From positions 26,531 to 90,530 of the forward strand of contig JAZQMY010000005.1 in assembly GCA_045627045.1 (NCBI GenBank): DNA of 64,000 nt, given 5' to 3'. Positions 35,280 to 60,468 of this stretch are shown in pieces. The first letter of the stretch is position 1; every line of letters begins with the position of its first letter. Position numbers and translations under genes: made by a program. The DNA comes from Clostridia bacterium. Lineage in GTDB: Bacteria; Bacillota; Clostridia; HGM11327. The notes beneath the pieces were generated by a model. The model was not told the DNA's origin. It saw only the letters and a program-made list of their open reading frames with translations, and did no database searches.

Positions 35280-35366
35280 TGGTGCCGAAGACCGGACTTG
35301 AACCGGTACGATTTTTAGGTCCCGGGATTTTAAGTCCCGTGCGACTGCCTATTCCGCCACTCCGGC
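35280..35366 (-). tRNA. tRNA-Leu (anticodon UAA)
   Basis: 87-nt class II tRNA. Acceptor GCCGGAG/CTTCGGC, anticodon arm CGGGA-CTTAAAA-TCCCG, long variable arm, T arm ACCGG-TTCAAGT-CCGGT, encoded CCA. Confidence 0.93.
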
Positions 35367-44202: not shown

Positions 44203-44531
44203 GATATACCTCCTTGTTTTAGCTGAAAGGCCTTTCAATACTAAAGTAATAATTTGCCATAAAAAGGTTACAAAATAAAAAAATAATTATGAACTGCCGT
44301 ATATACTAACATAATCAGATAATAAAGTCAATCAGTTCTATGTCAGCAGGCAGGATAGTTATTACGGATAATTATAATTTGTTTTTCGGAAAAGTGTGGT
44401 CAGAGAAGGGCTGATGCCGGATAGGATAAAAATGTTATGTAGTAAAGAGATTGTTGATTGATTTTGTATCTTGCCAGGAAACTTCAGCATAAAATCGAAA
44501 GCGAAGGCATCCACCTCGCTTTTTTGACATG

Positions 44532-44560
44532 AAAAAAGTGTCCGTGAAACTCACGAACAC
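44532..44560 (-). terminator. Orphaned terminator of tRNA-Leu(GAG) copy 1, now separated from it by the 15.3 kb element
   Basis: Minus strand GTGTTCGTGA-gtt-TCACGGACAC followed by TTTTTT. The 37-nt segment 44534-44570 equals 60282-60318 (downstream of tRNA copy 2) with one mismatch. Confidence 0.8.
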
Positions 44561-44571
44561 TTGATCTGGTA

Positions 44572-44593
44572 CGAGTGTTCATAAGGGATTTGA
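44572..44593 (+). repeat. Left terminal inverted repeat of the element
   Basis: CGAGTGTTCATAAGGGATTTGA. The reverse complement of 59816-59837 is CGAGTATTCATAAGGGACTTGA, so 20 of 22 positions are identical. Confidence 0.8.
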
Positions 44594-44676
44594 TAAATCA
44601 AATTACTCCGGCTCCGAATACATATATTCTTACTCGTATCCATTGCCGTTTGCAAATAATAATTTTGGATGATGAA

Positions 44677-45693
44677 TTACAGTGTGTATTTCTCTTGCAA
44701 GCATTGTATCAATTTAGGTATATATTCAATTTCATTTGCTATTATTTCTTTTATAGTATTGTCGATGTTTTCAAAATGCTTTTTATTCTGAGTTAATTCC
44801 ATTTTTATACCGAGAAGATGTATGTTTTCGGCTCTTTTATAATTCGTTTTTGCAAACAAACAAATTTCCTGGTTTTCAGGTAAAAACAAGTCACAGATTT
44901 GATTTAGAATCCACTCATGTTCAAGCAACACTCTTGCATACCTTCTGTCAACGTAAGCGTAGTCACTGTTTGTAATTTCATTTATGAAATAATCTCTTAC
45001 TCTTATGAGAGTCGAAATACCAAGAGATGCCTCATTAGGTAAATATTCTATTTCTGAAATATAGTCTTTAAGGTTTTTTATCATTCTTTTTATATTTGGT
45101 TCAGGTTCTGCGTTATCATTATAGCTTATAAAGTCAAGATTAATCAGTTCTCCTTTAATTGTCATTAGCCCAAGAATTACCTCTGCTTGTGAAGATTCAA
45201 ATCTCTCAAATACCCCGTTTTCAGTGTATCCTTCTAAAATGAAATTATCATCGTTATAACCGATAATTAAGAAATCGTGTGTATAATCAAAGTTGTGATA
45301 TGCATTTGTATGACAGACGTACTTCTCGTTGATGTTGCCATGAACATAGCAATTGTTATCTAATGATTCCTTTAAGATATACGATAAATTCAAACCGAAA
45401 ACATCCACTAAATCTTTCCGAATATATAAAGTCTGCTTAACCGTTAGTTTCTCTTCTGTTCCCCATAAATCTGTTGTCAAAATATTAAATTTGTTGTTTT
45501 TTGAATTTGGATAATATGAACAACTAACACATTTTGTGCATGCCCATTTTGTTATCTCTTGTGGAGCATTTGCCTGAATAATACCAAATGGATATGCAAG
45601 ATTATGATAACTTAATAATATTGGTTTTTCGGGGAACGGTAATATTTTCATTTCGTTAAATCTCATATTTTCTGATCTATAATTTGTTGACAT
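44677..45693 (-). CDS. Hypothetical protein, possibly papain-fold (C39/BtrH-N-like)
   Basis: 338 aa. Overlaps the FkbH-like gene end by 17 nt. The HDFLIIGYNDDNFILEGY segment resembles the catalytic-His strand (H-x-hydrophobic-GYD) of C39-like/BtrH-like proteins. Otherwise unrecognised. Confidence 0.5.
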   Translation of the reverse strand: MSTNYRSENMRFNEMKILPFPEKPILLSYHNLAYPFGIIQANAPQEITKWACTKCVSCSYYPNSKNNKFNILTTDLWGTEEKLTVKQTLYIRKDLVDVFGLNLSYILKESLDNNCYVHGNINEKYVCHTNAYHNFDYTHDFLIIGYNDDNFILEGYTENGVFERFESSQAEVILGLMTIKGELINLDFISYNDNAEPEPNIKRMIKNLKDYISEIEYLPNEASLGISTLIRVRDYFINEITNSDYAYVDRRYARVLLEHEWILNQICDLFLPENQEICLFAKTNYKRAENIHLLGIKMELTQNKKHFENIDNTIKEIIANEIEYIPKLIQCLQEKYTL

Positions 45694-47140
45694 AATTACA
45701 ATTTAGCATCCTTTCTTTGAGCCAAGCAGAAAAGTCTGCGTTTTTCCCGGTATTCCCGATTGCAATATCCGTTATTATTTCTTGTTTCAGAAGATAATTT
45801 GCCATCTGTTCTTCTACCCCTTTTCCGATTACACGGCATGAAAGTGAGAACAGTTTCACTTTCTCATTTTGAATTGCCATTGCTCCGATCAAACCGTAAT
45901 CGCTGACGGTGTCTTTGTAATACACAGAGTATAGTGTCCCTTTTTCATCAAGCAGTGTTTTCAGACCCCCGATGGTAAAACGGCCTCCGTTGGTTTTTTG
46001 GTTCGTCCGCATAGACAGTTCAGATATCCGTTTCCATTCGCTACTGTCGGCAGGATGTATTTCCGTTTCTCCGATAGTATTCATTGTATCTATTGATGCC
46101 TGCTCTGCTTTGAAATTCATTGCCCGGATTTTTGCTGTATCACTGTTGTTTTCTTTTAGCTTGAAGCAAGAAAGATCTCTATATACGGTATACGGATCAA
46201 AAAGAACTGTCTGAACTTCCGGCAAAAGGAAATTCATTTCTTTTATTTCTTCCGCGGAATCATCGACAAATACAATACTGTCCGGAGAGATATGCAGCAA
46301 CCCGGCCATTTCTCTAATGTTATCTGCCTTTCTTGTATAACCCGCGCGAATAATTGCGAAGTCTGTGTCTTTCAGTAACATTCCTGTATGGCTTTTCAGA
46401 ACTTCTGACAATGTTTCCTTATCATTCTTGGAACAGATACACAGGATGACTCCTCCTTTTAAGAGCCGAAGGACAAATCTTTGAAAATCCTTGTATTTCT
46501 CTGAGATATCTATTCCTTCTATGCCGTCTTCGTTCAGGATACCTCCCCACAGGACACCATCACAGTCCAGCGTAAGACATTTCTTGGTTTTGGAATATGC
46601 GATACAGTATTGGGTATATACTTCCTCCGCTATTTTTTTTATCAGTATCTCGGAATAAGGAGAGTTCCAGCGGTATTTCCCCTTTGCATTATATGAGTTG
46701 TTTATTCCGACTTCGGCGATTATCCTCTTAAAATCAATCAGCACGTCTGTTTCATCCAGAATTTCGGAAATATACAGATTGAGTTTATCGGACAGCCCAT
46801 GATATGAGAGTAGGTTGCCGAATACATTGCTCTCTTTCAAGTAATAGTCTTCAAACCCGAGCCAGAGGATTTGTGCATTTGTTTTCTCCCTTACGGTTCC
46901 GTATATTTCAGTACATTTGTTACACATATCGATATACCCAGTAATATCCGGAACCAGACTCCATTCACTCAGATGAAGATATAATAAGGCAAAATCCACA
47001 TCGAATGTGCGGATTTCAAAAACAGAATTCAAATATATGTATGTAATCTCGATATTATCAGAAAACACCTCAGTAAAACAGGGCTTCAAATATGGCTCAA
47101 AGTTCACGTTGCTGATAACCGCTATCCGAATCATACTCAC
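45677..47140 (-). CDS. FkbH-like HAD-IIIC family protein
   Basis: 487 aa. HAD motif I in the FkbH form LDCDGVLWGG, motif FVDDS, and a C-terminal GNAT-like part. ATGA overlap with the ACP gene. Confidence 0.7.
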   Translation of the reverse strand: MSMIRIAVISNVNFEPYLKPCFTEVFSDNIEITYIYLNSVFEIRTFDVDFALLYLHLSEWSLVPDITGYIDMCNKCTEIYGTVREKTNAQILWLGFEDYYLKESNVFGNLLSYHGLSDKLNLYISEILDETDVLIDFKRIIAEVGINNSYNAKGKYRWNSPYSEILIKKIAEEVYTQYCIAYSKTKKCLTLDCDGVLWGGILNEDGIEGIDISEKYKDFQRFVLRLLKGGVILCICSKNDKETLSEVLKSHTGMLLKDTDFAIIRAGYTRKADNIREMAGLLHISPDSIVFVDDSAEEIKEMNFLLPEVQTVLFDPYTVYRDLSCFKLKENNSDTAKIRAMNFKAEQASIDTMNTIGETEIHPADSSEWKRISELSMRTNQKTNGGRFTIGGLKTLLDEKGTLYSVYYKDTVSDYGLIGAMAIQNEKVKLFSLSCRVIGKGVEEQMANYLLKQEIITDIAIGNTGKNADFSAWLKERMLNCNYVNKL

Positions 47141-47391
47141 GAATCCTCTAATATTTCATTAATAACGTCCATTATGTGGGATATTGAGTCCAATTCCAAC
47201 ATTGTCAGTTTTTCGTCTGGAAAATCAAAGTCATATGTTTCTTCCAATTTTACTATTACCGAAATAAAAACTATAGAGTCTACACCTATTTCTATTAGGT
47301 TCTTTTCTGTGTCTTCCTCTGTAATTTTAAGTTCATCTGTGCATGAATTGAACATCTCAATAAGCTCCTTGATAGTTGGCTTCTTATTCAT
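47137..47391 (-). CDS. Acyl carrier protein
   Basis: 84 aa, acidic, with phosphopantetheine attachment motif GVDSIVF. Confidence 0.8.
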   Translation of the reverse strand: MNKKPTIKELIEMFNSCTDELKITEEDTEKNLIEIGVDSIVFISVIVKLEETYDFDFPDEKLTMLELDSISHIMDVINEILEDS

Positions 47392-48280
47392 CGTTTGCTC
47401 CCATAAAAACTTTTTTATTGATTTCTATCTTTCTTCTGTCTCTGTCGGTCAGGTCGGCTTCTATTAAAGGCAAGAGGTTATCTGCTTCCAACCGTGTGTT
47501 AAAGTCTACTTTCCACTCTTTTCGCTCTTTTTCGCAAAGCCCGTAAAGGTTCAGAAGTCTTTCTCCCTCCGGCGTACGGAATGCTTCGATGTATTTCTTC
47601 AGTATTTCATCCTCAAACACCTGGCTGGTATAATAAAGGACGTAAAAGACATATGGGATTATTTCATATTCCGAACTGATTCTGTACAGCTTTTCAATAG
47701 ATATTTCTTCAAAATTATTCTTTAGAAGATAATACACATCCTTGAACATTTCGTATTTGATACTATTCCTTGTCGCAAGAAGAAAGATACTGTTCATATC
47801 TTTATAATGATGGAGGATAAGCTGTACCATCGTTTTTAGCGGAGGAAGTGTTTTGACCTTTACCCCGTATATTTCCATATCTACTGTATCTGATAGGAAT
47901 TCCTCTATATCCACTCTTTTCTCTTCATATTCGCCCCAAAATATATCATAATTTATATCAATTGTAATAGGTAGATTCCCTACTTTAATTGCGTACTTTT
48001 GCAATTGATGCGAAGAAAGAAGGGGGAGAGCTCTGCTTATCCGATTAGAACACTGGCAAAAACCTATTTTTTGTAAAATACTTTCAACAACTTCTAAATT
48101 ATCTCGAGATACCAAAATATCAATATCTTGATATTGACGCAATCCCGACCTTTCGTATGCCATAATTGATAACGGTTCTCCTTTTATCAAAGCATAGGGT
48201 ATATCACCATTACCAAGTTGGTTCAACATGCCAGAACAACGTGAATACATTGCACTATATATTATGCTAGAATCAATCAT
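47384..48280 (-). CDS. Nucleotidyltransferase-family protein (NTP_transf_5-like)
   Basis: 298 aa. LKGEPLS...YQDIDILV resembles the uncharacterised nucleotidyltransferases found with HPr-kinase-like genes in peptide clusters. 8-nt overlap with the ACP gene. Confidence 0.6.
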   Translation of the reverse strand: MIDSSIIYSAMYSRCSGMLNQLGNGDIPYALIKGEPLSIMAYERSGLRQYQDIDILVSRDNLEVVESILQKIGFCQCSNRISRALPLLSSHQLQKYAIKVGNLPITIDINYDIFWGEYEEKRVDIEEFLSDTVDMEIYGVKVKTLPPLKTMVQLILHHYKDMNSIFLLATRNSIKYEMFKDVYYLLKNNFEEISIEKLYRISSEYEIIPYVFYVLYYTSQVFEDEILKKYIEAFRTPEGERLLNLYGLCEKERKEWKVDFNTRLEADNLLPLIEADLTDRDRRKIEINKKVFMGANDE

Positions 48281-48994
48281 ATAATACTGGTATAATTAAA
48301 TCATCCCCCAGCAAAAGATTCAATTACAAACTTCCTTTTCAAAAATTGGACTGTATGATATAATACTTGTGCTTTTAGGAGAACAGAGGATCAGGCACTG
48401 CTGGGAAGCGACCTGAGCACCGTTCCAGATTTTAAGAAGGAAAATACTTCCGATTGAATTGGCTCATCGCCCTTCGGAAAACATAAGGCAATAAACCAAT
48501 CCGGTAACTTTTTTGAAAAGTCCCATAATCCATTTCATATTTGAACTACAGCGACTTCGGTTGACTGGTTAATGGAGGGCTTGGCTGCGAGCTTTTTCCA
48601 GTTATTGTTATTAGTTTGTTATAGCGAAGGGCACATGCTCTTAGACTAGTTATAGGAAACCAGGGAATTGGGGAAGGTTACTCAGGGAGCACCGTGGCTT
48701 TTTCTTCATTTTCAAGGCGGACCGTCACATCCTCGTCGGTATCGATGTTGCATTCAAAAAGCATGATTATTTCATACTCCGCAAAGAAAGTGGTGAAACT
48801 AAAGTAGCTGCACTTCTCAACGGGCACTAAAAATGCGCCGCAGGACAACTCATAGAAGCTACTGGACACACGTAGAACTAAAGTCTGACTGCTACGCTTT
48901 TGAACTCACTGACAACATTGAGGAATTCGAATATATCTAACGCCACGTTGATAATTCTAATCAATAATGCTACATATTTGCAATGAATTTGTGT

Positions 48995-49906
48995 TCAGAC
49001 ATCGGTTAAATACTCGCAAATTTCCGCAATATCGTCAGCAGTTTTTTCGATTTCCTCAAGATTGTTCGGGATGATAATTTTGTAAAAAACCACCTTATCT
49101 GTAATTTCGTTAAACAAAAAAGATTTTTCAACCATATCGCAAAATTTGTACCCTAAAGAATTTGTTCCACATATGTTAAAATGAAGCAACATTTTTTTAT
49201 TGAACGTATTAGACACTTTATTCAATGATACCTTTTTACTGTTTTCGCGTTGAATAACGATGATAGAATCGATAGGTTGGCATGTTGTTCGATGTGTCCA
49301 TTTATCAGGTGGCTTCAGATATATCTTATTTTGTATATTTCTCCTCAAATCACAGTTTTCGCTATGTAATTGCAAAGCTTCATATGCAGTTTCAGTCAAT
49401 TTTAAACAATTTGCCCCAGAATATCCCACTATTCTCTCGTGCAAACATATTGCGATTGTATCGTCTGAAAAGAATGGATACCGCTTTTTTACAATTGCAG
49501 AGACCAATGTTGTTTTTCCTGAGCCTTTAGGAGCACATATCGGAATTAAATGGTTATTACAAATAAAACCTGATCCGTGCAATAACAACATTTGTTTACG
49601 AACTAAAAACAAGGCAAACGGTAAATTGAGTAAAGTTGATTGAATTTGTTCCAAAGTTATGGCTTGAGCAAAAATTATGTTACTATTATAATCCAGTCTG
49701 TATTTAATGTTTGAGTTGAGTTCCAACTCGTCGATTTCATCTCTCATATTAACACTAACAAACATTTTATCGTCCACACAATTGTTATCACACAAACTGA
49801 TTTCTAGAGTAACTACATCCATAAAAATTTGATTCGAATAAACGTCCAATATATTCAACTCATAATTGGATAATAATTTGAATCCATACAAATAATACTG
49901 AAACAA
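48995..49906 (-). CDS. HPr-kinase-C-terminal-domain-like P-loop protein (HprK-related kinase)
   Basis: 303 aa. LLLHGSGFI...ICAPKGSGKTTL matches the HprK-like core (hHGS/A..G....GxSGxGKS/T). Confidence 0.65.
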   Translation of the reverse strand: MFQYYLYGFKLLSNYELNILDVYSNQIFMDVVTLEISLCDNNCVDDKMFVSVNMRDEIDELELNSNIKYRLDYNSNIIFAQAITLEQIQSTLLNLPFALFLVRKQMLLLHGSGFICNNHLIPICAPKGSGKTTLVSAIVKKRYPFFSDDTIAICLHERIVGYSGANCLKLTETAYEALQLHSENCDLRRNIQNKIYLKPPDKWTHRTTCQPIDSIIVIQRENSKKVSLNKVSNTFNKKMLLHFNICGTNSLGYKFCDMVEKSFLFNEITDKVVFYKIIIPNNLEEIEKTADDIAEICEYLTDV

Positions 49907-49933
49907 GCCATCTCACCCTACTTTATATATTCT

Positions 49934-51631
49934 TTACTTATTCTCAACGATTTCAATTAACTGTCCTTTTTGAAACCGTAACACTACATCCGCAAACTTA
50001 GTCAGCTCATGATTGTGTGTGACAAATATAATTATTCTGTCATTACTATTCTTTTCGCACATATGCTGTATAATAGACTCTCCTGAAGCACTATCAATAG
50101 CGCTAGTAGGTTCATCCATAACAACTATTCTTTTATCTTTTAGATTTAAAGCAGCACGTATATTTGCTAGCTTTTGTTTTTCTCCGCCTGAGCACTCCAA
50201 ACCGGTGGCAACAAATGTTTTAGAATAATCGTTTTGTATTTCATTAAATCTGTCTAAATTAAAAACTCTGGTGAGATTAAGATACTCCTTCATATCATCT
50301 TCGTTTTCAATCAAAAGATTGTTTTTGATACTCATTCCGTCAATAAATTGAAAATCCTGCAAAATGCTTGAAACCTTTGAGTAATAATCAATCAAATTAA
50401 TCTCAGATAATAGGTGATCATTTACCAGTATCTGTCCTTCTGTTGGCCGATATAGTCCTAATATCAATTTTATGAGGGTACTTTTTCCTGACCCGTTTTC
50501 CCCAATAATAGCATAAGTTTTCCCTAACAAAAAATCAAAAGTAATCTTTGATAAAGCAAAACCATCTGTACCATAGTAACGATAAGAAACCTCTTTAAGT
50601 GAAATACAATTTATCTTATCGTCTCTCAATTTTTGTGTCGATATGTTAGATTCTGTTATTTGTTTGAACTTTTCATAATTCTTGCTCTCTAACACTCCTC
50701 CATAAAGGCTTGCAACCAATTTAATCATAGAAAAAAGCACACCGCTAAATTGCAAGGATGTATTTAATGTCACGGTGTAGTCGCCAATCGTCATTTCGCC
50801 TGATAACAACATATACCCAAATAATATCATAATGCCAAGCGTTACACTATTTTGCAAAACATTACCTGCTTGCGTGTAATAGAATAACCTAAGATTATTC
50901 TTAAAAGTGGATGTAATAAACGATTTTGAAATATCCGTAAATGTATATTTTAGAATTGGGTAAGTCCCATTGAGTCGAATATCTCTAGCTTGTTGTTTGT
51001 TTAGCAACAAGCCTTGAAAATAATTGATTTTTCTCCTCATTAATGTCGTTTGATTATTATACTCAACATCACACTTCGCCTTTTTTATCATTAACACATA
51101 ATTGACTATTACACTAGCAGAAATAGCTAATAACACCAAATAATTGAATTGAGCAACGATATAAATATACGATATAATAGTTATCGTGGTAGAGACTACA
51201 TTCAGAAATGTGTCAAAAACCCTTAATCCCACACCCGTTGCAAAGCCAAACGCTCTCTGAAAAATATTTGCTGTTTCAACATCATCATAATAATCGTATT
51301 GCATAATGAACATTCTGTCTAACGCTTCGCTCGTAATTAATAAATTGGCCTGCTGCAAGAGCTTATTTGAAAACAATTCAATAACCGCATATATCAATGA
51401 CAGTATTGTTTGCATGATTACAAAAAATACCACATATAAAAGGAAATAGTATATACTTTGTCTTACAACAATTGCGTCCAATATGTATTTAGGCATTACC
51501 GCGCTAAAAACGGGAAAAAAGCCTCCAATTAAAGCCAGCAAAACTTTTAATATAACAAAAATGCAATTTTTCTTTGCCACAGAAAATATAAAATTTAAAT
51601 AAAATTTAATTTCTTTCATAACATACTCCAA
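49934..51631 (-). CDS. ABC exporter, fused permease/ATPase (no peptidase domain)
   Basis: 565 aa. Six-TM N-terminal half, Walker A GENGSGKST, signature CSGGEKQK, Walker B VVMDEPTS. Confidence 0.88.
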   Translation of the reverse strand: MEYVMKEIKFYLNFIFSVAKKNCIFVILKVLLALIGGFFPVFSAVMPKYILDAIVVRQSIYYFLLYVVFFVIMQTILSLIYAVIELFSNKLLQQANLLITSEALDRMFIMQYDYYDDVETANIFQRAFGFATGVGLRVFDTFLNVVSTTITIISYIYIVAQFNYLVLLAISASVIVNYVLMIKKAKCDVEYNNQTTLMRRKINYFQGLLLNKQQARDIRLNGTYPILKYTFTDISKSFITSTFKNNLRLFYYTQAGNVLQNSVTLGIMILFGYMLLSGEMTIGDYTVTLNTSLQFSGVLFSMIKLVASLYGGVLESKNYEKFKQITESNISTQKLRDDKINCISLKEVSYRYYGTDGFALSKITFDFLLGKTYAIIGENGSGKSTLIKLILGLYRPTEGQILVNDHLLSEINLIDYYSKVSSILQDFQFIDGMSIKNNLLIENEDDMKEYLNLTRVFNLDRFNEIQNDYSKTFVATGLECSGGEKQKLANIRAALNLKDKRIVVMDEPTSAIDSASGESIIQHMCEKNSNDRIIIFVTHNHELTKFADVVLRFQKGQLIEIVENK

Positions 51632-52252
51632 ATAAAAAGCATAATCATAAGGGAACCTCTATAAATTGAATTTTTCAGTTCCCGTTTTTGATTTTTCGGT
51701 TCAAATTTCGAAATTATTTCCATGCACATATTATAAACAAGATTAGTAAGACCGATATTGAACTTGGCTCTCTCAATACCGATTGAACGTACAGTAAGCC
51801 CATGCATTGTCATTGTCATAAAACCGAATACATGCTCAATTCTTGCTCTTGTTTTGGTCTTGATTCGATTGCTTTCTTTTTGCTTTGCTGTCAAAGATTT
51901 AAGGCAGCCCTTTTCATGAACATGATTGGTTACGTGCTTTGGTAATTCTTTTCCTGCATAGGCGGCTGTCGACATAAACTTATTTATCGTTTTTGTCGAT
52001 AAAATCCACAAACCCATTGCTGTCGTGTACATTTGCAGATGTTACGGCATAATCGATGATAAGCTTGCTTTCGGCATCGACTTTGGTATGATCCTTATAG
52101 CCGTAATGTGTTTCATTGCCCTTCTTTGTCCAACGGGCATCAGTATCTTTTTGAGCCAGTTTTGCCTTGTTTTCCTCCCATTCTTCAGGTATTTCGCCGT
52201 TTTTTATTATCTTGTTCTCCTCACTGTTGTTTCTTCGATGGGAAGCGTCCAC
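51616..52252 (-). pseudogene. IS5-family transposase remnant (5'-truncated, frameshifted)
   Basis: Two overlapping ORF fragments (..QKDTDARWTKKGNETHYGYKDHTKVD.. and ..RARIEHVFGFM....RSIGIERAKFNIGLTNLVYN) cover only the DDE core. The N-terminal third is missing and there is a frame shift near 52030. Confidence 0.8.
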
Positions 52253-52268
52253 ATACGTACTATCTCTA

Positions 52269-53621
52269 TCAAAATAATCTGGTTTTGCTTTTTTCGTAAT
52301 TCAAGTATACAATTTGATCCAAATTGTCCTTGGTGGGAGAGCACTTGGGTGATACCTCAAAACCATTTTTCACTCTATATGCAGGGCATGAAGATCCACA
52401 GCAAAATGGATATGCAATACACCCGAAACACTTATTTTTGCGTAGATACTCTATGTAAAATTTATCATCCAAAATCCATAATTTCTCTTTTTCAGCGTTT
52501 ATGTTAAAATACCCTTCGTTAATATCTCCAATTACAAATGGGGATTCACAATCTGGTGATTCTTCCAATGTACATTTTCCGATGCATCCATTTTTGTATA
52601 TAACATATGTGTGTTTTTTATTAGCATAGCACAACTCTGATCCACAAGCAAAATTATAGTGTTTTGCAGGGTAAATATCCATTTCCCCGCACTTCTTCAA
52701 CAATTGCTCCATTATGTATGGATGATACTCACTAGAAATGGCAGAGTATTGGTCGTCATTTTCACCGCCCCAGTGTCCAATAGCCTTAAAGGCTATTTCA
52801 AATCTAGCATCATCCTTGAAATTAAAACTGAAATACTCCAAAAATCTCTCAATGCTGTTAAGAATTTCAAAATTGTAATTAACACGTATTAAAACTTTAA
52901 ACTGCTTCTCTATAGTTTTCATTTGCAATAAATTATTGGTTATTCTTTCCCACGTTGGATTGCCAAACTTGTCATATCTATATTTATCATGAGTTTCCGC
53001 CATCCCGTCCACTGTGATTTGGAAAATATTAACGCTTGCATCAATTAATTCTTCAGCAAGTTTTTTCTTAAGAAGTGAACCATTTGTTGTCATACTGTGC
53101 TGAAATACAATATTTTTTGATTGACAGAAATTATTAATACGAGTCGTTAAGTCAAGTATTTGGTCATAAAACAGCAATGGCTCACCGCCAAACCATTCAA
53201 TTTTCAAAAAACCAAATCCGACAGTTTCATAGTGTGCTACAATAGAAGAATATATATTTTCAATCGTTGCTTGACTCATAAATCCCGCTTCTTTATTCTC
53301 ATAGCAATACTTGCATTTGAAATTGCATTCTAATGTAGGAAAAATAATTAGTGATAAACTATTTTCATCTCCAATAATTTTTCTTATTTGGTGATATACC
53401 CTCAAATCTTCATCGTCATTCACGGCAACGCAATAGTTTTCAACTATGCGTTTATCTAATTGTTCGGAACTAATTGGACGATCTACTAGCGAACGAATTT
53501 GCTGAATTAAAGATTCATCAAATATAACACTTTGTTTTCCAGTAACAGTATTATATACTATCATTTCTTCGGTTTCATCTAGTTCTATGACCTTTGTATA
53601 TTTTGATAATGTGTATTTCAT
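52269..53621 (-). CDS. Radical SAM/SPASM peptide maturase with N-terminal RRE-like extension
   Basis: 450 aa. CNFKCKYC (CX3CX2C) at about residue 90. C-terminal Cys cluster CFGCIAYPFCCGSSCP (SPASM-like). The N-terminal 85 aa (..EEMIVYNTVTGKQSVIFDES..) looks like a PqqD/RRE-type domain. Confidence 0.8.
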   Translation of the reverse strand: MKYTLSKYTKVIELDETEEMIVYNTVTGKQSVIFDESLIQQIRSLVDRPISSEQLDKRIVENYCVAVNDDEDLRVYHQIRKIIGDENSLSLIIFPTLECNFKCKYCYENKEAGFMSQATIENIYSSIVAHYETVGFGFLKIEWFGGEPLLFYDQILDLTTRINNFCQSKNIVFQHSMTTNGSLLKKKLAEELIDASVNIFQITVDGMAETHDKYRYDKFGNPTWERITNNLLQMKTIEKQFKVLIRVNYNFEILNSIERFLEYFSFNFKDDARFEIAFKAIGHWGGENDDQYSAISSEYHPYIMEQLLKKCGEMDIYPAKHYNFACGSELCYANKKHTYVIYKNGCIGKCTLEESPDCESPFVIGDINEGYFNINAEKEKLWILDDKFYIEYLRKNKCFGCIAYPFCCGSSCPAYRVKNGFEVSPKCSPTKDNLDQIVYLNYEKSKTRLF

Positions 53622-53932
53622 ATTAATCTCAATTCTGCCGCTAAAGCATCACCACAAATAGGAATGAAAGAGTGCTACTAGGCGGCGATTTTGTAACAAT
53701 TTTCTGTTAAAATGTTTTCAGGGAGAAGACACACTACAACGCACAGGGAGGTGAGTCGTAGAAGTACTTCTTGCTGAAAACAGTATTTTAATCAGTGTTA
53801 GAATCATCTTGTCAAGCACAAATAAGTGTTGACACCGAGCACGTACGCTAAAAAATGTTTTAACGCCTGTTAAATTGTGTGATGATTCAGTCACTGTCTT
53901 CTCCTCACAGCTTAATTTGAGGAGGGATATTT

Positions 53933-55160
53933 TTGAAAGTTGTATTTCCTGTTTGCTACGGTATCGATGTTTACAAAACATTTTTGGTCGGAACGACTAT
54001 TTCAACCACAGACGGTGTACACCCGCATTACCAAAAGAAACGCTTTTCCACATATAATTCAGACCCGCATCGCTTTGCCGACTGGCTTCTCGCAAACAAC
54101 CGCTATGATATCTGTATGGAATCCGCTGGCAAGTATTGGGTTCCGATTTTCAACATTCTTGAAGAATGCGGCATCCGTGTTGCGATTTTCAATCCCAAAT
54201 AGGTAAAAGCCGTCAAGGGTAACAAGGACGATATAAAACGACTTGTTTCGTTTGAGGCTTTTCCCGGGGAGTTTTATTCCGCCTAAGGAAATTCGCATCC
54301 TTCGTGAATTTGCCCGCTATCGCTACAAACTAGTTTCAGTGAAAAGCAGTGAGAAAAACCATTTTCAAAACGCTTTTACCGTTTGTAATGTTGCTCTTGA
54401 TTCTGTTGTTTCGGATATGTTCGGCAAATCTGCAACTGCAATTACAGATTACCTCATCTCCGAAGATTCATTCAATCTGGAATATTGCGTCTCTCTTTTA
54501 CAGCGTTCCCTGAAAAAGAAGTCCGATTCCGTGCTTGAATCCATTGAAGGATATTCCATTACAAATGAGCAAAAATTGCAAATGAGAATTGTACGTTCTC
54601 ATCTGTATTACATTACTAGCACTATTTCTCAGGTGGATTCTGCGATTGATGCGATGGTCGCAAAGCACGATGTGGTGATTTCTCTGCTCTGTACTATTCC
54701 CGGTGTTGACCGCAATTCTGTCATTACGATCATTTCCGAAATCGGTACCGATATATCTCAATTCGGTTCCTCAAAACGCCTGTGCTGCTGGGCGGGACTA
54801 ACGCCCAATAACAATGAATTTGCCGGCAAGAAAAAGTCTGTTCGCATTACACGTGCTGGAGTATATCTCAAACCTGCATTGGTGCAAATTGCCCATGCAG
54901 CCGTGAAACCAACCGACAATTCTTACCACCGTTTGAAGTATGAGCAAATTTCCAAGTGCAGAGGAAAGAAACGAGCCATCATTGCCATCGCACGGATGAT
55001 TCTCACTGCTGTTTTCAAAATGATGTCTACCGGCGAAGTCTGGAATCATAAAAATCTCTTCAAAGTCGATATGCCGAAATCACTCATAGAACGCAAACTT
55101 ACCAAAGCTGTCAAACAAGCCACTAAATTCCTTGAAAAGCAAGGATTGACCGTTTCTTAG
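53933..55160 (+). pseudogene. IS110-family transposase, disrupted
   Basis: The N-terminal DEDD domain (VCYGIDVYKTF...MESAGKYW) ends at an in-frame TAG where IS110 proteins have NPKW. The frame then changes before the C-terminal domain (FIPPKEIRILREFARYRYKL...). Confidence 0.8.
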
Positions 55161-55351
55161 TTCTTTGTTGAATACCTTTTCGTTAACCTTGCAAAAAAAT
55201 ATCGTCTTGCAATGTCTTTTCCTTATGCCTTTCGTCATGTGGACGTGGTATTTCTTTTACGCTAACACCTTTAATTATATTAACAACAGCGACGTTCAAA
55301 ATAGTTAATAAACTTCCTTGAACAATTCTGCCAATAAAAATTTCGAATATC

Positions 55352-55405
55352 ATTCCGAGACGCCAAACGACAAAGCAACTTGGCATCTCGGAATCCGTTT
55401 TTTTT
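55352..55405 (+). terminator. Strong hairpin plus T-run (terminator in plus orientation, probably IS110-associated)
   Basis: ATTCCGAGACGCCAA / TTGGCATCTCGGAAT 15-bp stem followed by CCGTTTTTTTT. Confidence 0.65.
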
Positions 55406-55502
55406 GTGGCAATCTCATTTTTGAAATGCAGATTACCACGGGGCTACCGCCACTCACAATGACAACTCAATCCCATTTTACTACTTCGACTTTATATTTG
55501 CG

Positions 55503-55628
55503 TTATGAACATGCGATGCCCAAATTGGGCGAACAACCACATTGTGGAACAATATTTATTGTTCCACCGCATCCAGGAATAAAGTTAATTCCGTTGGGGG
55601 CAGTTATGTTGTTATCAAAATCCTTCAC
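55503..55628 (-). CDS. Candidate RiPP precursor peptide B (41 aa, not in ORF track)
   Basis: GTG start 9 nt after AAAGGAG. Translation: (M)KDFDNNITAPNGINFIPGCGGTINIVPQCGCSPNLGIACS. Paralogous to peptide A. Confidence 0.7.
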   Translation of the reverse strand: MKDFDNNITAPNGINFIPGCGGTINIVPQCGCSPNLGIACS

Positions 55629-55677
55629 ACCAATATACTCCTTTCTGTGTTGTGATTATCAATGAATATTAGTTTAT

Positions 55678-55779
55678 TTAAGAGCAGACACACATATTTA
55701 AATTAATGGTACAGCCACATAATGGAACAATATTGAGATCAAATTGCGGATTCTCTGCTACGGGCAATAAATTACTCAT
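55678..55779 (-). CDS. Candidate RiPP precursor peptide A (33 aa, not in ORF track)
   Basis: ATG 9 nt after GGAGG in AAGGAAGGAGG. Translation: MSNLLPVAENPQFDLNIVPLCGCTINLNMCVCS. Confidence 0.7.
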   Translation of the reverse strand: MSNLLPVAENPQFDLNIVPLCGCTINLNMCVCS

Positions 55780-55982
55780 TTGTATAATCCTCCTTCCTTT
55801 TGAATAATATGTTCATAGACTCTGCGTTCGTCCTTATAACGAAAAACGGTGGCAAAAGTATTACAAACCCAAAATTAGTTTGGTTTGAGAACTATTGGAT
55901 ATCAAACAACAACTCAATATACTCGGGGGAATTATGTCCTAATAATCCGACGCGCATATACCAACCTCCATCTGATTCTAAT

Positions 55983-56018
55983 AAAAAAGCACAAACCATC
56001 CCTTAGAATAGTCTGTGC
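55983..56018 (-). terminator. Rho-independent terminator (minus strand) upstream of the precursor genes
   Basis: Minus strand GCACAGAC-14 nt-GTTTGTGC followed by TTTTTT. Confidence 0.6.
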
Positions 56019-56262
56019 ACTATATTTCAAATTCTCTTGGAGAATGTGAGTGTCTTGATTACTAAACAGACATATTCTTTGTTAATTTTATTATACTACA
56101 CTATTTATTATTTGTCAACTATTTAATCACAAAAAATATATATTTTTTATCATTATTTAAATAAAATTTTACACAATATTTCAAACATATTATAATCTTT
56201 TTAAAATTATTACATAATCATTCAGCTTTTCTGATTCTTGTGATTATTTTTTCAAAATACCC

Positions 56263-56470
56263 GATATTTTGGTCCACCTTATTCCATACATTATGGAGCC
56301 CCTCTATTGACGATAGCACGGGATAGAACCGTACACAACACGACTTGCGTGAAACATAGAAAAAATAATACAGGAAGCCGCAAACAGGGTTATCTTTTGC
56401 CACCCCGTATTCCATACATTATGGAGGGCACTCTTGACAACAGCACCTGATATCACCGTACACATCACTG
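56263..56470. repeat. Two direct repeats with a period of about 126 bp, each containing a TCCATA-cat-TATGGA palindrome (a degenerate third copy lies near 56587-56650)
   Basis: CCACC..TATTCCATACATTATGGAG..C(T)TTGAC..ACCGTACACA occurs at 56274-56337 and 56400-56464. A weaker match GACCACCCTTTGTGCATTAATTATAGAGGG...CCTTGACAAC starts at 56589. Confidence 0.75.
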
Positions 56471-56957
56471 GATTTTCATAAAATTTCAAAAAAGCAAGCT
56501 AAATATGGCAATTTAGGTTATCTTCCGGCACTGAATTGTAAATTTATTATGAATATTTCAGAAAATGTCCAAAAACACCCTAATATTTGACCACCCTTTG
56601 TGCATTAATTATAGAGGGTATTTTTTCTTTCACTGTTCCTTGACAACTGAATAAACGACCTTTGCAGGTGATACGACATTGCCATGACTCCGAACGGACG
56701 GATGAGCGATGCAACGCCGGAGAAACACTCGGGCAGGAACTGCTGCGAATGAGGCGCCGTACATGCTCTGTTTTTCAGAGTAAATTAAAAATAAGCGGTT
56801 CAGAGCCGCAGGAGAATACAAAATGCGTATCAAAAATTATTCACGAATAAAGAAGAAAGGAGGAGAAAAACATGGAGACGGGTTTTCTGATGATTTCCGG
56901 AGCAGTTTTCAAGGATGAAAAGTATTCCGGAATATCACTCTACGCCTTTTGAGTATG

Positions 56958-57020
56958 ATTACGGACGCGGTGCGTCCGTAATGTAGCAAGCATCGCATTT
57001 GGGTGCACACACCCCAATGC
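56958..57020 (+). other. Two adjacent strong hairpins, candidate oriT or regulatory region upstream of the MobC-like genes
   Basis: ATTACGGACGC-ggt-GCGTCCGTAAT (perfect 11 bp) and GCATTTGGGTG-caca-CACCCCAATGC (10 of 11). Confidence 0.4.
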
Positions 57021-57074
57021 AGTTGTCAGGGGAAGCCCTGAAACCCTGAGAAACAGACAAAGGAGAACAAGAAT

Positions 57075-57431
57075 ATGGAGAAAAAGACTGAAAGAATTAA
57101 ATTCTGGCTTACTGACAAGGAACTGAAAAAACTTGACCGTCAGGCAAAGAAAGCAAAAATGACTCGTTCGGAATATATCCGCAAAAAAATCAATGAAAGC
57201 ACAGTAATCATCTCACCGGAGATTGATTACGAAAGCTATTACAAAGAGTTCCACCGACTCGGAGATGAATTGAACGGTTACGTTGTCAAACTGAACACGA
57301 CCGGAGTCTTCAATGAAAAAAAGACGGATCGTATTATTACAGAGCTTAACGAGCTGATGAAAAAATTTGACACCGAAGCAACCGAAAAGCTGAATGAAAA
57401 CATTAAAAAAGCTAATGGAGAGCCGGTATGA
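57075..57431 (+). CDS. MobC-like ribbon-helix-helix protein
   Basis: 118 aa. ..FWLTDKELKKLDRQAKKAKMTRSEYIRKKI.. is the typical MobC/RHH N-terminus. Confidence 0.65.
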   Translation: MEKKTERIKFWLTDKELKKLDRQAKKAKMTRSEYIRKKINESTVIISPEIDYESYYKEFHRLGDELNGYVVKLNTTGVFNEKKTDRIITELNELMKKFDTEATEKLNENIKKANGEPV

Positions 57432-57787
57432 GAAACAGTAAGCATTATATTCAGGCAAGAGTATCGCCAAGTGAGAAAGACCACTTCTTACGAGTGACGG
57501 AACTTTGTAATATGACAGAACACACAGTTCTTGACCATTATCTGGAAGGATATCCGCTCGCAGAGCACCCACCGGAAGAATTTTGGGAGCTCGACAGATT
57601 GCTTTTGAGAATCACATTGCTGCTAAGCCATGTATGGCTTAGCAAAAATATGCGTTTGGAAAAGCAACAGAACAAATATTACACTGCACAGAAACAACTG
57701 AACAAACTCTGCAATAATGCTTTTTGGAAAATAAAACTCGCTGATCCAGATTATGGAAACGACAGCAACGATAAAAGAAAGGGCTAA
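57428..57787 (+). CDS. Hypothetical protein, second MobC/RHH-like
   Basis: 119 aa. ..ARVSPSEKDHFLRVTELCNMTEHTVLDHYL.. resembles RHH relaxosome accessory proteins. ATGA overlap with the previous gene. Confidence 0.5.
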   Translation: MRNSKHYIQARVSPSEKDHFLRVTELCNMTEHTVLDHYLEGYPLAEHPPEEFWELDRLLLRITLLLSHVWLSKNMRLEKQQNKYYTAQKQLNKLCNNAFWKIKLADPDYGNDSNDKRKG

Positions 57788-57796
57788 ACACACAAT

Positions 57797-58027
57797 ATGA
57801 AAAGAAATAGATGGATATGCGGATTGCTCACAGGAAAACAGGAATATTTGATAAACGGCGTAAAGTATATTGTATCAGCCGAATTTGAAAAACGGGATTC
57901 AAGTAATACAATACGCTCCCGTTTTGAGCATGCAATAAAAAGTGAAATGATAGATTTGACAATACGGCCGTCTGATGATATAATAAGAAAGGAATATATG
58001 TATTCGGCTGCCGGAAAGGAGGATTAA
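57797..58027 (+). CDS. Small transposon-associated protein (TnpW-like, tentative)
   Basis: 76 aa, immediately preceding (stop/start adjacent) the serine recombinase, as small ORFs do in Tn4451-type elements. Confidence 0.45.
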   Translation: MKRNRWICGLLTGKQEYLINGVKYIVSAEFEKRDSSNTIRSRFEHAIKSEMIDLTIRPSDDIIRKEYMYSAAGKED

Positions 58028-59743
58028 ATGCAGTCGAAAAACAAAAAAGTAAAAAGCGAAGAAACAGGAATCACAGCACTGTATAGCCGTCTTTCACGGG
58101 ACGACGGATCAGACAGTGAAAGCAATTCTATTGCCAATCAGAAAAAACTGCTTTCTCAAAAGGCAAAGGAGCTGGGGCTGACCAATACAAAGCATTATGT
58201 TGATGACGGTTACACGGGGACAAACTTCAATCGCCCGGCATTTCAGCAGATGACAGAGGATATTGAGATGGGATATGTTACAACTGTTATGGTGAAGGAT
58301 TTATCCCGTCTGGGCAGAGATTATGTTTCAGTAGGAAATTATACTGACAGATATTTTCCGGAGCACAACGTCCGTTTTATCGCCGTTAACGACGGCATAG
58401 ACAGCGACGAGGGCGAAAGTGAAATCGCACCGTTCAAGAATATTCTGAACGAAATGTACGCAAGGGATATTTCAAAAAAGATAAGAAGCTCGCACCGTCT
58501 GCGTGGCAATGCCGGTGAACCGCTTTCACAACCGCCTTACGGATATATGAAATCACCCGAAAACAAGAAAAAGTGGATTGTAGATTATGAAGCAGCAGAA
58601 ATCGTAAAGCGTATATTCAGGATGTGCATTGAAGGCAACGGAAACGAAACAATTGCTCACTCACTGCAGAACGAAAAAATTCTGAATCCGATGGCATACT
58701 GGCGAAGCAAAGGTCTCAACAGAGGCGGCAAAAGGACACAGCCGGATCCTTATCATTGGTGTAAAACCACAGTACAAAAAATACTTGCACAGCAGGAATA
58801 CTGCGGCGACATAATCAACTTCAAAACATATTCGAAGAATTTCAAAAACAAAAACCGTCTTGAAAACCCGAAGGAGAACTGGGTGATTTTCAAAGATGTT
58901 CATGAACCGATTATCGACAGGGAGACCTTCGAACAAGTACAACAACTTACCGCAGAAACAAAACGCCGTGCACCGAAACCTGATAATTCACAAAAGAGTA
59001 TATTAAGCGGTTTGATTTATTGCGGAGACTGCCACAATATAATGCGATATCATACGAATACGTCAAACAAAGATATCCATTTTTTCTCGTGTAGCAACAA
59101 TATAGTGGACTATCGAGGTACCTGCCGCAGCCGTCATTATGTCCGTGCTGATTCAGTAGAGCAGGTTATCACGCTTGAACTCAGACGTATGGCTTCTTTC
59201 CTGAAAGCCGACGAAGATGCCTTTGCAGAGCTTCTTGCGCAAAAAACCAACGAATCAATTGCAAAAGAACAGAATCAGGCAAATGATGAGCTGCAGAAAG
59301 CACTTGTACGGAGTGATACAGTTTCACAATTGTACGAAAAGCTCTATGAGGATAACGCTTCGGGAAAGGTATCTGATGAATGGTTTATGCAGCTGTCCCA
59401 TAAATATGAACTGGAACGAATGGAACTTAAGGCAAAGATAACCGAATTACGAAAAAAGCTTTCTGAAATCGGGAGTCGCCAGCAGGAGCGGAACAATTTT
59501 ACCTACGCCATTCGCAAGTTTATGGAGATGGACAAGCTGACTGCACCGCTTCTTCGTGAGCTCATTGATCATATTGATGTTTACGAAACAGAAGGTACTG
59601 GCAAAAACAGAACACAACGGATAGTAATCTATTACCGCTTTGTGGGCTATATTGAATTGCCTGAAAACTTTTTCCGTACAAACTACAAGGCTGATACAAG
59701 GCGTGGTGTTGCAGTGGAGTATATCCCCACAAAGACAGCATAA
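58028..59743 (+). CDS. Large serine recombinase (TnpX/phage-integrase-like)
   Basis: 571 aa. Resolvase catalytic motif ALYSRLSRDD. Recombinase domain. Zinc ribbon CGDCHN...FFSCSN. C-terminal coiled coil. Confidence 0.92.
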   Translation: MQSKNKKVKSEETGITALYSRLSRDDGSDSESNSIANQKKLLSQKAKELGLTNTKHYVDDGYTGTNFNRPAFQQMTEDIEMGYVTTVMVKDLSRLGRDYVSVGNYTDRYFPEHNVRFIAVNDGIDSDEGESEIAPFKNILNEMYARDISKKIRSSHRLRGNAGEPLSQPPYGYMKSPENKKKWIVDYEAAEIVKRIFRMCIEGNGNETIAHSLQNEKILNPMAYWRSKGLNRGGKRTQPDPYHWCKTTVQKILAQQEYCGDIINFKTYSKNFKNKNRLENPKENWVIFKDVHEPIIDRETFEQVQQLTAETKRRAPKPDNSQKSILSGLIYCGDCHNIMRYHTNTSNKDIHFFSCSNNIVDYRGTCRSRHYVRADSVEQVITLELRRMASFLKADEDAFAELLAQKTNESIAKEQNQANDELQKALVRSDTVSQLYEKLYEDNASGKVSDEWFMQLSHKYELERMELKAKITELRKKLSEIGSRQQERNNFTYAIRKFMEMDKLTAPLLRELIDHIDVYETEGTGKNRTQRIVIYYRFVGYIELPENFFRTNYKADTRRGVAVEYIPTKTA

Positions 59744-59799
59744 AACAAACGAGCAGACAAAATGCCTGCTCATACATTAATAAAATTAACATCAAAAAA

Positions 59800-59839
59800 A
59801 TCGAGTATCCATAGGTCAAGTCCCTTATGAATACTCGAT
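59800..59839 (-). terminator. Hairpin in the element's right end that acts as a replacement terminator for tRNA-Leu(GAG) copy 1
   Basis: Immediately after the tRNA CCA, the minus strand reads ATCGAGTAT-22 nt-ATACTCGAT followed by TTTTTTT. Confidence 0.6.
59816..59837 (-). repeat. Right terminal inverted repeat of the element
   Basis: The reverse complement CGAGTATTCATAAGGGACTTGA matches 44572-44593 at 20 of 22 positions. Confidence 0.8.
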
Positions 59840-59840
59840 A

Positions 59841-59923
59841 TGGTGCAGTTGACGGGACTTGAACCCGTACCCTTTCGGACACGCCCCTCAAACGTGCGCG
59901 TATGCCAATTCCGCCACAACTGC
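59841..59923 (-). tRNA. tRNA-Leu (anticodon GAG), copy 1
   Basis: 83 nt. Acceptor GCAGTTG/CAACTGC, anticodon arm CACGT-TTGAGGG-GCGTG, variable arm, T arm ACGGG-TTCAAGT-CCCGT, encoded CCA. Confidence 0.92.
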
Positions 59924-59966
59924 ATTCATATTTACGTCGGCTGATGTCACATCAACTGACATGCGT

Positions 59967-59995
59967 ATTTTACATCTTTTTTTGAATTTTGTCAA
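59967..59995 (-). promoter_or_regulatory. Promoter of tRNA-Leu(GAG) copy 1
   Basis: Minus strand TTGACA, 17 nt, TAAAAT. Confidence 0.65.
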
Positions 59996-60281
59996 GTACT
60001 TTTTTAACAGGCAGGAGATAACCTGCTTGCATATTATTTTCGGAATAATGCAATAAAAACGCTGAAATGAGTATAAAAAGGACACAAAAAATAATAAAAA
60101 ATATTTTCCGAAATACGATTTTTGACTCATTTTTTATAGCTTGGAGGATGAAATGATGCCTTTTGTTGAGTAAAGAATTATGAAGAGCCGAAGTCTGATA
60201 TCAAAACTTCAGAAGACAGAGCAGGAAAGAGACTTTCGCATTGCAGGATATCAGGCAAGTCGGACAGATTCTGACAAAAAG

Positions 60282-60308
60282 AAAAGTGTCCGTGAAACTC
60301 ACGTACAC
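60282..60308 (-). terminator. Terminator of tRNA-Leu(GAG) copy 2 (intact arrangement)
   Basis: Minus strand GTGTACGTGA-gtt-TCACGGACAC followed by TTTT, 6 nt after the tRNA CCA. Confidence 0.8.
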
Positions 60309-60314
60309 TTGATC

Positions 60315-60397
60315 TGGTGCAGTTGACGGGACTTGAACCCGTACCCTTTCGGACACGCCCCTCAAACGTGCGCGTATGCCAATTCCGCCACAACTGC
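60315..60397 (-). tRNA. tRNA-Leu (anticodon GAG), copy 2
   Basis: Sequence identical to copy 1 over all 83 nt. Confidence 0.92.
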
Positions 60398-60439: not shown

Positions 60440-60468
60440 ATTATACCTCGCTTTTAACATTTTGTCAA
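60440..60468 (-). promoter_or_regulatory. Promoter of tRNA-Leu(GAG) copy 2
   Basis: Minus strand TTGACA, 17 nt, TATAAT. Confidence 0.7.

Follow-up and report, generated by a model that had tools for sequence, protein, structure and literature searches.

The elements Tn4451 and Tn4453 (recombinase TnpX) and Tn5397 (recombinase TndX) encode large serine recombinases with a C-terminal DUF4368 domain, and have imperfect inverted-repeat ends, a 2-bp crossover, variable cargo and loosely defined insertion sites. The core dinucleotide of TnpX and TndX is GA. An element which, judged by its sequence, belongs with this Tn4451/Tn5397 kind and with the DUF4368 'multi-targeting' clade was found in a 64,000-nt stretch of contig JAZQMY010000005.1 of a Clostridia bacterium (hereafter the window, on whose numbering all coordinates are given), where it lies beside the first of two tRNA-Leu(GAG) genes (copies 1 and 2). 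Its recombinase was approximately 40% identical to the annotated TndX of Tn5397 over 92% of the protein, and the likeness extends to the imperfect inverted-repeat ends, the (here predicted) 2-bp crossover and the variable cargo; TnpV in one relative (L039) and a small, weakly TnpW-like open reading frame (ORF) beside the recombinase gene may add to it. The differences are that the core of the window family is TG and not GA, that CCA ends of a class of tRNA genes are targeted in place of loosely defined sites, that the recombinase gene lies at the right end, convergent with the tRNA gene, and that a hairpin and T-run are found at that end. The DUF4368 clade was classed as 'multi-targeting' by Durrant et al. 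(2022), in the main text of which tRNA is absent (PMC10083194).

Phage large serine integrases (Listeria A118/LI, Bxb1 and phiC31) have the same domain architecture, and share with the window family an attP (predicted in the present case) with two symmetric arms around a central dinucleotide, and a distal motif that is 5 bp closer to the centre in attB (PMC3783163; measured here for the window family). However, the phage enzymes use one unique attB, usually within a protein-coding gene, whereas one conserved half-site in many tRNA genes is used by the window family. Furthermore, no phage genes were found in the window element, the DUF4368 tail is missing from the phage enzymes, and the phage relatives of the recombinase were at most approximately 42% identical over most of the protein.

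Tyrosine-integrase islands, integrative and mobilisable elements (IMEs) and prophages also reside in tRNA genes, which likewise stay functional (PMC5704250, PMC4383910), and textbook and review accounts assign tRNA 3' ends to tyrosine integrases, while serine-recombinase IMEs are described as inserting within, and disrupting, protein-coding genes (PMC5704250). The tyrosine-integrase elements differ in enzyme family and chemistry; their crossover lies inside the tRNA gene, the 3' part of which they must carry, and they are flanked by direct repeats of tens of bases, whereas in the window family the exchange would occur at the last two bases, with nothing to restore and 2-4 bases shared. Islands with a serine recombinase (CcrB-like DsiB) are known from Dehalococcoides, where they lie in the 3' region (T-loop) of ssrA, a gene resembling those of tRNAs (PMC3146451). 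They differ from the window family in having a single transfer-messenger RNA target with a 20-bp direct repeat, an insertion point within the T-loop, two Ccr-clade recombinases (DsiA and DsiB) and hosts of an unrelated phylum. Among tycheposon-type elements of Prochlorococcus, 27 of 937 have a large serine recombinase. In the literature searched, the scope of which did not include subscription literature, no large serine recombinase, TnpX-like or otherwise, was described at tRNA CCA ends.

We propose, with a probability of roughly 0.85, that the window element is a Tn4451/Tn5397-kind element that was inserted by its own large serine recombinase, through recombination between attP and the 3' end of tRNA-Leu(GAG) copy 1 as attB.

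Junctions of the element in the window and in its relatives

The two tRNA-Leu(GAG) genes, identical in sequence and 474 bp apart on the minus strand, were located with ARAGORN (coordinates of these and other features are given in Table 1). In the direction of transcription, copy 2 is followed by GATCAAGTGTACGTGAGTTTCACGGACACTTTT, a hairpin with a T-run, and copy 1 by TATCGAGTATTCATAAGGGACTTGA... instead. A terminator-containing 37-mer that ends in TGGT is present as a direct repeat at 44534-44570 and 60282-60318 (36/37 identical), and its left copy is followed by A-CGAGTGTTCATAAGGGATTTGA. The ends of the element carry inverted-repeat arms of 22 nt (44572-44593 and 59816-59837, 20/22 complementary), the motif of which, with up to three mismatches allowed, occurred at just these two sites of the 64-kb window (0 expected by chance). 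The left junction reads CTGGT-A-CGAGTG and the right junction TACTCG-ATA-TGGTGCAG. All of this, that is the repeat with its single mismatch, the positions of the tRNA pair, the imperfect inverted repeats and both junction reads, had been listed in the initial annotation of the locus and was reproduced here. In-silico excision of 44571-59844 (15,274 nt) gave a reconstruction that aligned to the copy-2 site with a gap-free junction, with one differing position over terminator and tRNA and approximately 80% identity in the promoter/upstream region, and the earlier designation of the neighbouring copy as an intact empty site therefore stands. G+C content was approximately 0.34 between the arms versus 0.43 outside.

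Relatives of the recombinase were collected by a protein-based scan with one genome per species, which found 313, mostly from gut Oscillospirales. The best 80 of the 313 loci (68-84% identity), selected by recombinase similarity alone and originating mostly from metagenome-assembled genomes of Oscillospiraceae, Acutalibacteraceae and 'Ruminococcaceae', were analysed, and 77 of them had enough downstream DNA to be read. In all 77 loci the recombinase gene was followed by a conserved right end, AAAAATCGAGTRTTCATAA...TTATGAAYACTCGATA, and then by TG. The sequence after the right end was the CCA end of a complete convergent tRNA gene in 67 loci and a tRNA 3' fragment (22-45 nt) in six; two contigs stopped directly after TGGTGC, one locus (L036) had a non-tRNA site and one (L060) was part of a tandem array. 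tRNA 3'-end sequence adjoined the core in 75 of the 77 informative loci. Together with the tandem-repeat register restored by excision, these right ends bear out the initial proposal of a site-specific serine-recombinase insertion between the ACCA end of the tRNA and its terminator.

Isotypes were tallied for the 64 complete-tRNA junctions first tabulated and the window, and comprised Leu (31, with all five anticodons), Pro (28), Met (3), Ser (1), Arg (1) and Gln (1). For the family, the target named at the outset, the 3' end of tRNA-Leu(GAG), has to be widened to a class of tRNA 3' ends in which Leu and Pro predominate. Recombinases that were 97-98% identical lay at different tRNAs (for example Pro-GGG versus Leu-TAA, 97.9% identity), a single genome carried two copies, each at a different tRNA-Pro gene and with 96.8% identity between their recombinases, and 96 of the 171 recombinase pairs with at least 90% identity were at different isotypes. 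Nearest neighbours agreed in isotype in 30/65 cases, versus 26.7 +/- 4.8 by permutation. Target identity does not follow recombinase phylogeny, and the window insertion is therefore one case of family-wide, class-specific tRNA 3'-end targeting, and a routine event for its family.

In four loci (L048, L051, L057 and L064) the right end adjoined only a tRNA 3' fragment of approximately 29-45 nt. Since such orphan fragments are typical leftovers of tyrosine-integrase islands, the far ends of other islands may also serve as targets. Two further loci (L037 and L065) had a 22-nt tRNA 3' fragment broken in the T-loop, followed by an insert of approximately 220-240 nt, which contains a GCAACAATT motif, beyond which the same tRNA was present in full, an arrangement suggestive of a second type of insertion, of very small size, in the tRNA T-loop.

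Predicted crossover dinucleotide and recognition of tRNA 3' ends

Left ends could be read in the window and in five relatives (L039, L040, L043, L044 and L058), and all had the form N-TGGT-(G/A)-CGAGTG.... Right junctions had the form ...CTCG-ATA-TGGT..., with TGGC at tRNA-Ser and tRNA-Gln, and TGAA at the non-tRNA site of L036. The overlap at the junctions was 2-4 nt, and TG was the sole dinucleotide invariant over all left and right junctions. Serine recombinases require an identical 2-bp overhang in both recombination partners, and since only TG is common to all junctions, TG is taken as the core; GG and GT were rejected on account of the TGGC and TGAA junctions. The TGGT that had been pointed out as shared does occur on both sides of the element, but the crossover was narrowed to its first two bases. 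In the predicted attP the arms are 8 nt apart (ATA-TG-GTR), with TG at the geometric centre.

In the mechanism that we propose, the element is integrative and possibly mobilisable, and its circular attP would recombine with the 3' end of tRNA-Leu(GAG) copy 1 by a 2-bp crossover at TG, which is complementary to C75-A76, the last two bases of the encoded CCA. With a crossover at the terminal CA, the tRNA gene would keep its full sequence including CCA, and its native terminator would be moved 15.3 kb away. The predicted circle joint is ...ACTCGATA-TG-GTACGAGTG... (also written GAATACTCGATA-TG-GTACGAGTGTTC), and the predicted repaired copy-1 site is ...CACTTGATC-TG-GTGCAGTTG... (also written CACGAACACTTGATC-TG-GTGCAGTTGACGG).

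Read outward from TG, the consensus was GTgCGgGTGACaGGACTTGAACC on the tRNA side and TATCGAGTaTTCATAAGGGATTTGAC for the P arm. The distal tRNA-side part (positions 12-22, T-stem and T-loop) aligned best with the P arm at +5, where the expected identity was 0.65, compared with 0.51 at +4 and approximately 0.2 at most other offsets. Eleven P' arms, six of them integrated left ends, agreed with the tRNA consensus in 7-9 of the 9 proximal positions. Of the 11 distal positions, 5-9 agreed at +5 (8-9 in the integrated left ends) and just 2-3 at offset 0. According to Rutherford et al. (2013; PMC3783163), the attB motif of the zinc-ribbon domain in Listeria and other large serine integrases lies 5 bp nearer the centre than its attP counterpart. 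The arms of the window family are tRNA-3'-end-like, with the T-arm-like motif placed 5 bp outward as in this published attP/attB rule. Both arms of the element present the same two motifs as the tRNA, the distal one 5 bp further from the centre, and it is by this difference in spacing that large serine integrases discriminate attP from attB.

On the tRNA side, the half-site recognised would have the form TG-N6-GTGAC-N5-TTGA, that is the acceptor-stem end and the T-arm read as DNA sequence, a form common to tRNA-Leu, tRNA-Pro, tRNA-Met and a few other genes. A poorer motif fit was found for other isotypes in the same loci (Lys, Arg, Ala, Glu, Val and Gly; 25 genes only). In L036, the right end (approximately 100 nt past the recombinase stop codon) adjoins the non-tRNA DNA TG-AAAGTAGTGACCTATTTTGATAC, in which TG, GTGAC (positions 7-11) and TTGA (positions 17-20) are found in the register of the tRNA targets. 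Being kept at this site, these bases point to probable key contacts, and since the site is not a tRNA gene, DNA sequence would be recognised and not the tRNA gene as such; L036 looks like a natural pseudo-site that may show the minimal recognition pattern. The other half-site would be essentially unconstrained: the B-arm side of the core was different in all seven available cases, and was usually the tRNA's own terminator.

This habit of the family (terminal-CA crossover, 5-bp-offset mimic arms, many tRNAs and a probable built-in terminator) is, as far as we found, undescribed. That the family constitutes a previously undescribed clade of large serine recombinases, with tRNA-mimic arms, an exact terminal-CA crossover, many harmless landing sites in tRNA genes and orphan fragments, and its own replacement terminator, is a claim to which we give about even odds. 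If true, it would be a serine-recombinase counterpart of the classic tyrosine-integrase targeting of tRNA genes, and a second, mechanistically different answer to it, as a cut at the last two bases of the gene leaves nothing to rebuild. The more than 70 independent insertions by near-identical enzymes form a natural set displaying the two motifs and the 5-bp attP/attB offset, useful for understanding and re-engineering serine-integrase target choice. As tRNA 3' ends are conserved and each genome offers several of them, the enzymes could be ready-made landing-site integrases for poorly tractable gut Firmicutes.

Besides the occupied copy 1 (motif score 35.9), the window holds two good targets that are unoccupied, tRNA-Leu(GAG) copy 2 (35.9) and tRNA-Leu(TAA) (34.5), the latter located by ARAGORN at 35280-35366.

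Right-end hairpin, joined ends and alternative explanations

The fold of the right end on the tRNA strand is a hairpin of approximately 16 bp that starts three bases past CCA and is followed by U7 (z = -4.55). The stem was kept in 30 distinct relatives, with compensatory double changes at four pairs (one of them, for example, being G-C in 16 of the sequences but A-U in 14 others). Sixteen single-side changes gave G-U on the tRNA strand, which would be A-C mismatches on the opposite strand, and no A-C combination was observed on the tRNA strand among the 30 distinct relatives. The T-run was likewise conserved in relatives. The right end is probably a built-in replacement for the displaced terminator, and its hairpin and T-run would most likely end tRNA transcription in place of the latter.

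A scan for the predicted attP joint found perfect P-ATA-TGGT-R-P' joints without tRNA in four metagenome contigs (L081-L084), of which just one had recombinase sequence near the joint, in the form of a truncated copy. P-TGGT-P' joints with no tRNA between the arms were also placed in L060, at approximately nt 52 and past its right end. In viral contigs, neither the circular attP joint nor left ends were matched. As tandem insertion (as in L060) or decayed elements explain such joints equally well, they were not counted as proof of a circle; they confirm that the two ends are joinable across TGGT, and are no proof of a free circle. L060 itself resembles several elements in tandem, in which case attR or another hybrid site would be re-usable as a target, which would be unusual for phage-type serine integrases.

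Several points weigh against insertion of the window element by its own recombinase, or against parts of that reading. No sister strain of the host was found in databases, and hence no natural empty copy-1 site for comparison; the best homologue of a flanking glycosyltransferase, the window's own protein aside, was 47% identical. Look-ups by exact sequence for the recombinase and for the proteins on both flanks gave no match, and the window's own gene call begins four codons later. No clear excised circle was seen, the joint-bearing contigs being without an intact adjacent recombinase or too short. A TnpZ-type relaxase, as carried by Tn4451/Tn5397, was not seen in the window scans, which found only a NikA-like protein (oriT, the origin of transfer, was not sought), and TnpV was not found in the window; with neither of these recognisable and with decayed insertion sequences inside, the present mobility of the element is uncertain. 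Of the make-up of an IME (its own integration module and an oriT/relaxase module, but no genes for conjugation), the integration module is present. Just seven left junctions were available, so that an essentially unconstrained B arm rests on few cases. Finally, a simple terminator scan gave no call for the right-end hairpin, and its compensatory changes could mark a third recombinase-binding repeat rather than an RNA structure; for both reasons a terminator role is something that we infer.

Of the alternatives, the one that survives best, although unlikely, is that the element is an old immobile relic, or that it was placed by an internal transposase, its terminal repeats being merely a transcription terminator. 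The two decayed insertion-sequence genes and the lack of a recognisable relaxase or TnpV would fit this. However, neither the IS110 gene nor the DDE gene is intact, and both lie in the interior, a long way from either end; for this reason they were rejected as insertion agents. The recombinase frame is full length and 84% identical to relatives, both arms fit the family consensus, and the presence of near-identical relatives at different tRNAs indicates that the family has been recently active.

Less probable is an assembly artefact, in which one tRNA-Leu locus, occupied in some members of a mixed population and empty in others, was assembled as two alleles in tandem. The host is apparently known from a single assembly, and the identical repeat of tRNA and terminator (approximately 120 nt) can confuse assemblers, but the DNA upstream of the two tRNA copies is diverged (81% identity over 64 nt and unrelated beyond), a separate promoter-like site belongs to each copy and the terminators differ at one base, whereas alleles would match upstream. 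The diverged upstream regions suggest that the tandem tRNA pair is real and reflects an older host duplication, not two assembled alleles.

Least probable, and very doubtful, is a mobile unit spanning 44571-60281 between the 37-nt repeats, with tRNA copy 1 as cargo, moved by tyrosine-integrase-style or homologous recombination with a long target duplication: the stretch is indeed flanked by a 37-nt direct repeat, and direct-repeat-bounded islands beside tRNA genes are a common tyrosine-integrase pattern (PMC5704250), but no tyrosine recombinase is present, the repeat consists of the terminator and just 4 nt of tRNA and is not a tRNA 3' segment, the conserved element end in relatives reaches precisely to the tRNA and no further, near-identical elements have different tRNAs beside them, so that the tRNA belongs to the host, no other locus has a second copy of the same tRNA beside the element except L037 and L065 (where the first copy is a 22-nt fragment), and the upstream regions of the two tRNA copies are approximately 80% alike, as fits an older host duplication.

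Genes and other features of the element

Large serine recombinases have a Resolvase catalytic domain with a nucleophilic serine, then Recombinase and zinc-ribbon domains. The recombinase of the window element has Pfam matches to PF00239, PF07508 and PF13408, all above cut-offs, and to DUF4368 (9e-19), with the N-terminal catalytic motif YSRLSRDD at residues 19-26. It had been noted as the only recombinase of the element, which holds in the sense that it is the sole intact one: two transposase genes (Table 1) are also inside, both of them broken. No tyrosine recombinase or phage-integrase domain was found in any ORF of the element.

Table 1. Coordinates of the features of the element and its flanks in the window.
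Feature	Position	Strand	Basis or remarks
Integrated element	44569-59842		15,274 bp including one core copy; register restored on removal; low G+C
Displaced native terminator of tRNA-Leu(GAG) copy 1, B arm of attL	44530-44566	-	36/37 match downstream of copy 2; hairpin 44536-44562 and T-run; terminator-scan call; fold is 12-bp hairpin and U6
attL core dinucleotide TG	44567-44568	+	Invariant at all junctions; centre of predicted attP spacer
P' arm, left element end (GTA and inverted-repeat arm CGAGTGTTCATAAGGGATTTGA)	44569-44593	+	Inverted repeat; window motif scan; relatives
P arm, right element end (inverted-repeat arm TCAAGTCCCTTATGAATACTCG and ATA)	59816-59840	+	Inverted repeat; relatives
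attR core dinucleotide TG, complement of C75-A76	59841-59842	+	Right junctions of relatives
tRNA-Leu(GAG) copy 1, intact with encoded CCA	59841-59923	-	3' end (59843 to approximately 59866) is B' arm
Promoter-like site of tRNA copy 1, TTGACA-17-TAAAAT	59967-59995	-
Unoccupied paralogous attB	60282-60340	+	Terminator (B arm), TG core 60315-60316, tRNA 3' end (B' arm)
tRNA-Leu(GAG) copy 2	60315-60397	-	Own promoter 60440-60468, TTGACA-17-TATAAT
Right-end hairpin (59800-59839) and T-run (59793-59799), proposed replacement terminator of tRNA copy 1	59793-59839	-
GC-rich hairpin just past recombinase stop codon	59749-59773		Terminator-like on minus strand
Large serine recombinase, 571 aa	58028-59743	+	Resolvase, Recombinase, Zn_ribbon_recom and DUF4368 (Pfam); convergent with tRNA
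Conserved 76-aa ORF, weakly TnpW-like	57797-58027	+	Directly upstream of recombinase
NikA/MbpA-like mobilisation accessory protein	57075-57431	+	Pfam NikA-like 2e-12; NCBIfam MbpA below cut-off
Cargo genes	44677-53621	-	Pfam and NCBIfam scans
Radical SAM/SPASM peptide maturase	52269-53621	-
ABC exporter	49934-51631	-
NTP_transf_5 protein	47384-48280	-
Carrier protein	47137-47391	-
FkbH-domain protein	45677-47140	-
Split DDE_Tnp_1 transposase pseudogene	51616-52252 (51616-52032 and 51980-52252)	-
Frameshifted IS110-family transposase pseudogene	53933-55160 (53933-54202 and 54243-55160)	+

Both tRNA copies have a near-consensus promoter of their own. A hairpin similar to that near the recombinase stop codon (GAGCAGGC...GCCTGCTC) was visible in related loci.

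The 76-aa ORF had tblastn matches in 66 of the 80 loci at the same offset, and the upstream ORF was extracted in 52 loci. The Pfam TnpW match to this small-ORF family was weak (2 of 12 members, 6e-4), and the protein could be a directionality or regulatory factor. Across the family it comprises 75-86 aa, with the motifs EY.INGV.Y.V and, C-terminally, AAGKED, and the stop codon of its ORF abuts or overlaps the recombinase start. Homologues of the NikA/MbpA-like protein were present in 13 related loci.

No homologues of the cargo genes were found among the 80 related loci, except for weak matches to the ABC exporter and the radical SAM protein, and the cargo is thus specific to the window element. 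It resembles a peptide-natural-product or similar biosynthetic cluster. One relative, L039, is a complete element of 10.5 kb, with TnpV (5e-49), restriction-modification cargo and a ParB-like gene.

G+C content is 0.43 in the IS110 stretch, above that of the rest of the element. To the left of the insertion, the neighbouring genes (42911-44238) encode a sigma-70/extracytoplasmic function-type factor and a 248-aa protein without a Pfam match; with their low G+C content (approximately 0.36), they may be older foreign DNA beside the tRNA. A perfect 16-nt inverted repeat (CCGAATACATATATTC and GAATATATGTATTCGG, 44614-44629 versus 57992-58007) joins DNA just inside the left end with the 3'-terminal part of the 76-aa ORF, immediately ahead of where the recombinase gene starts, and might be a regulatory site.

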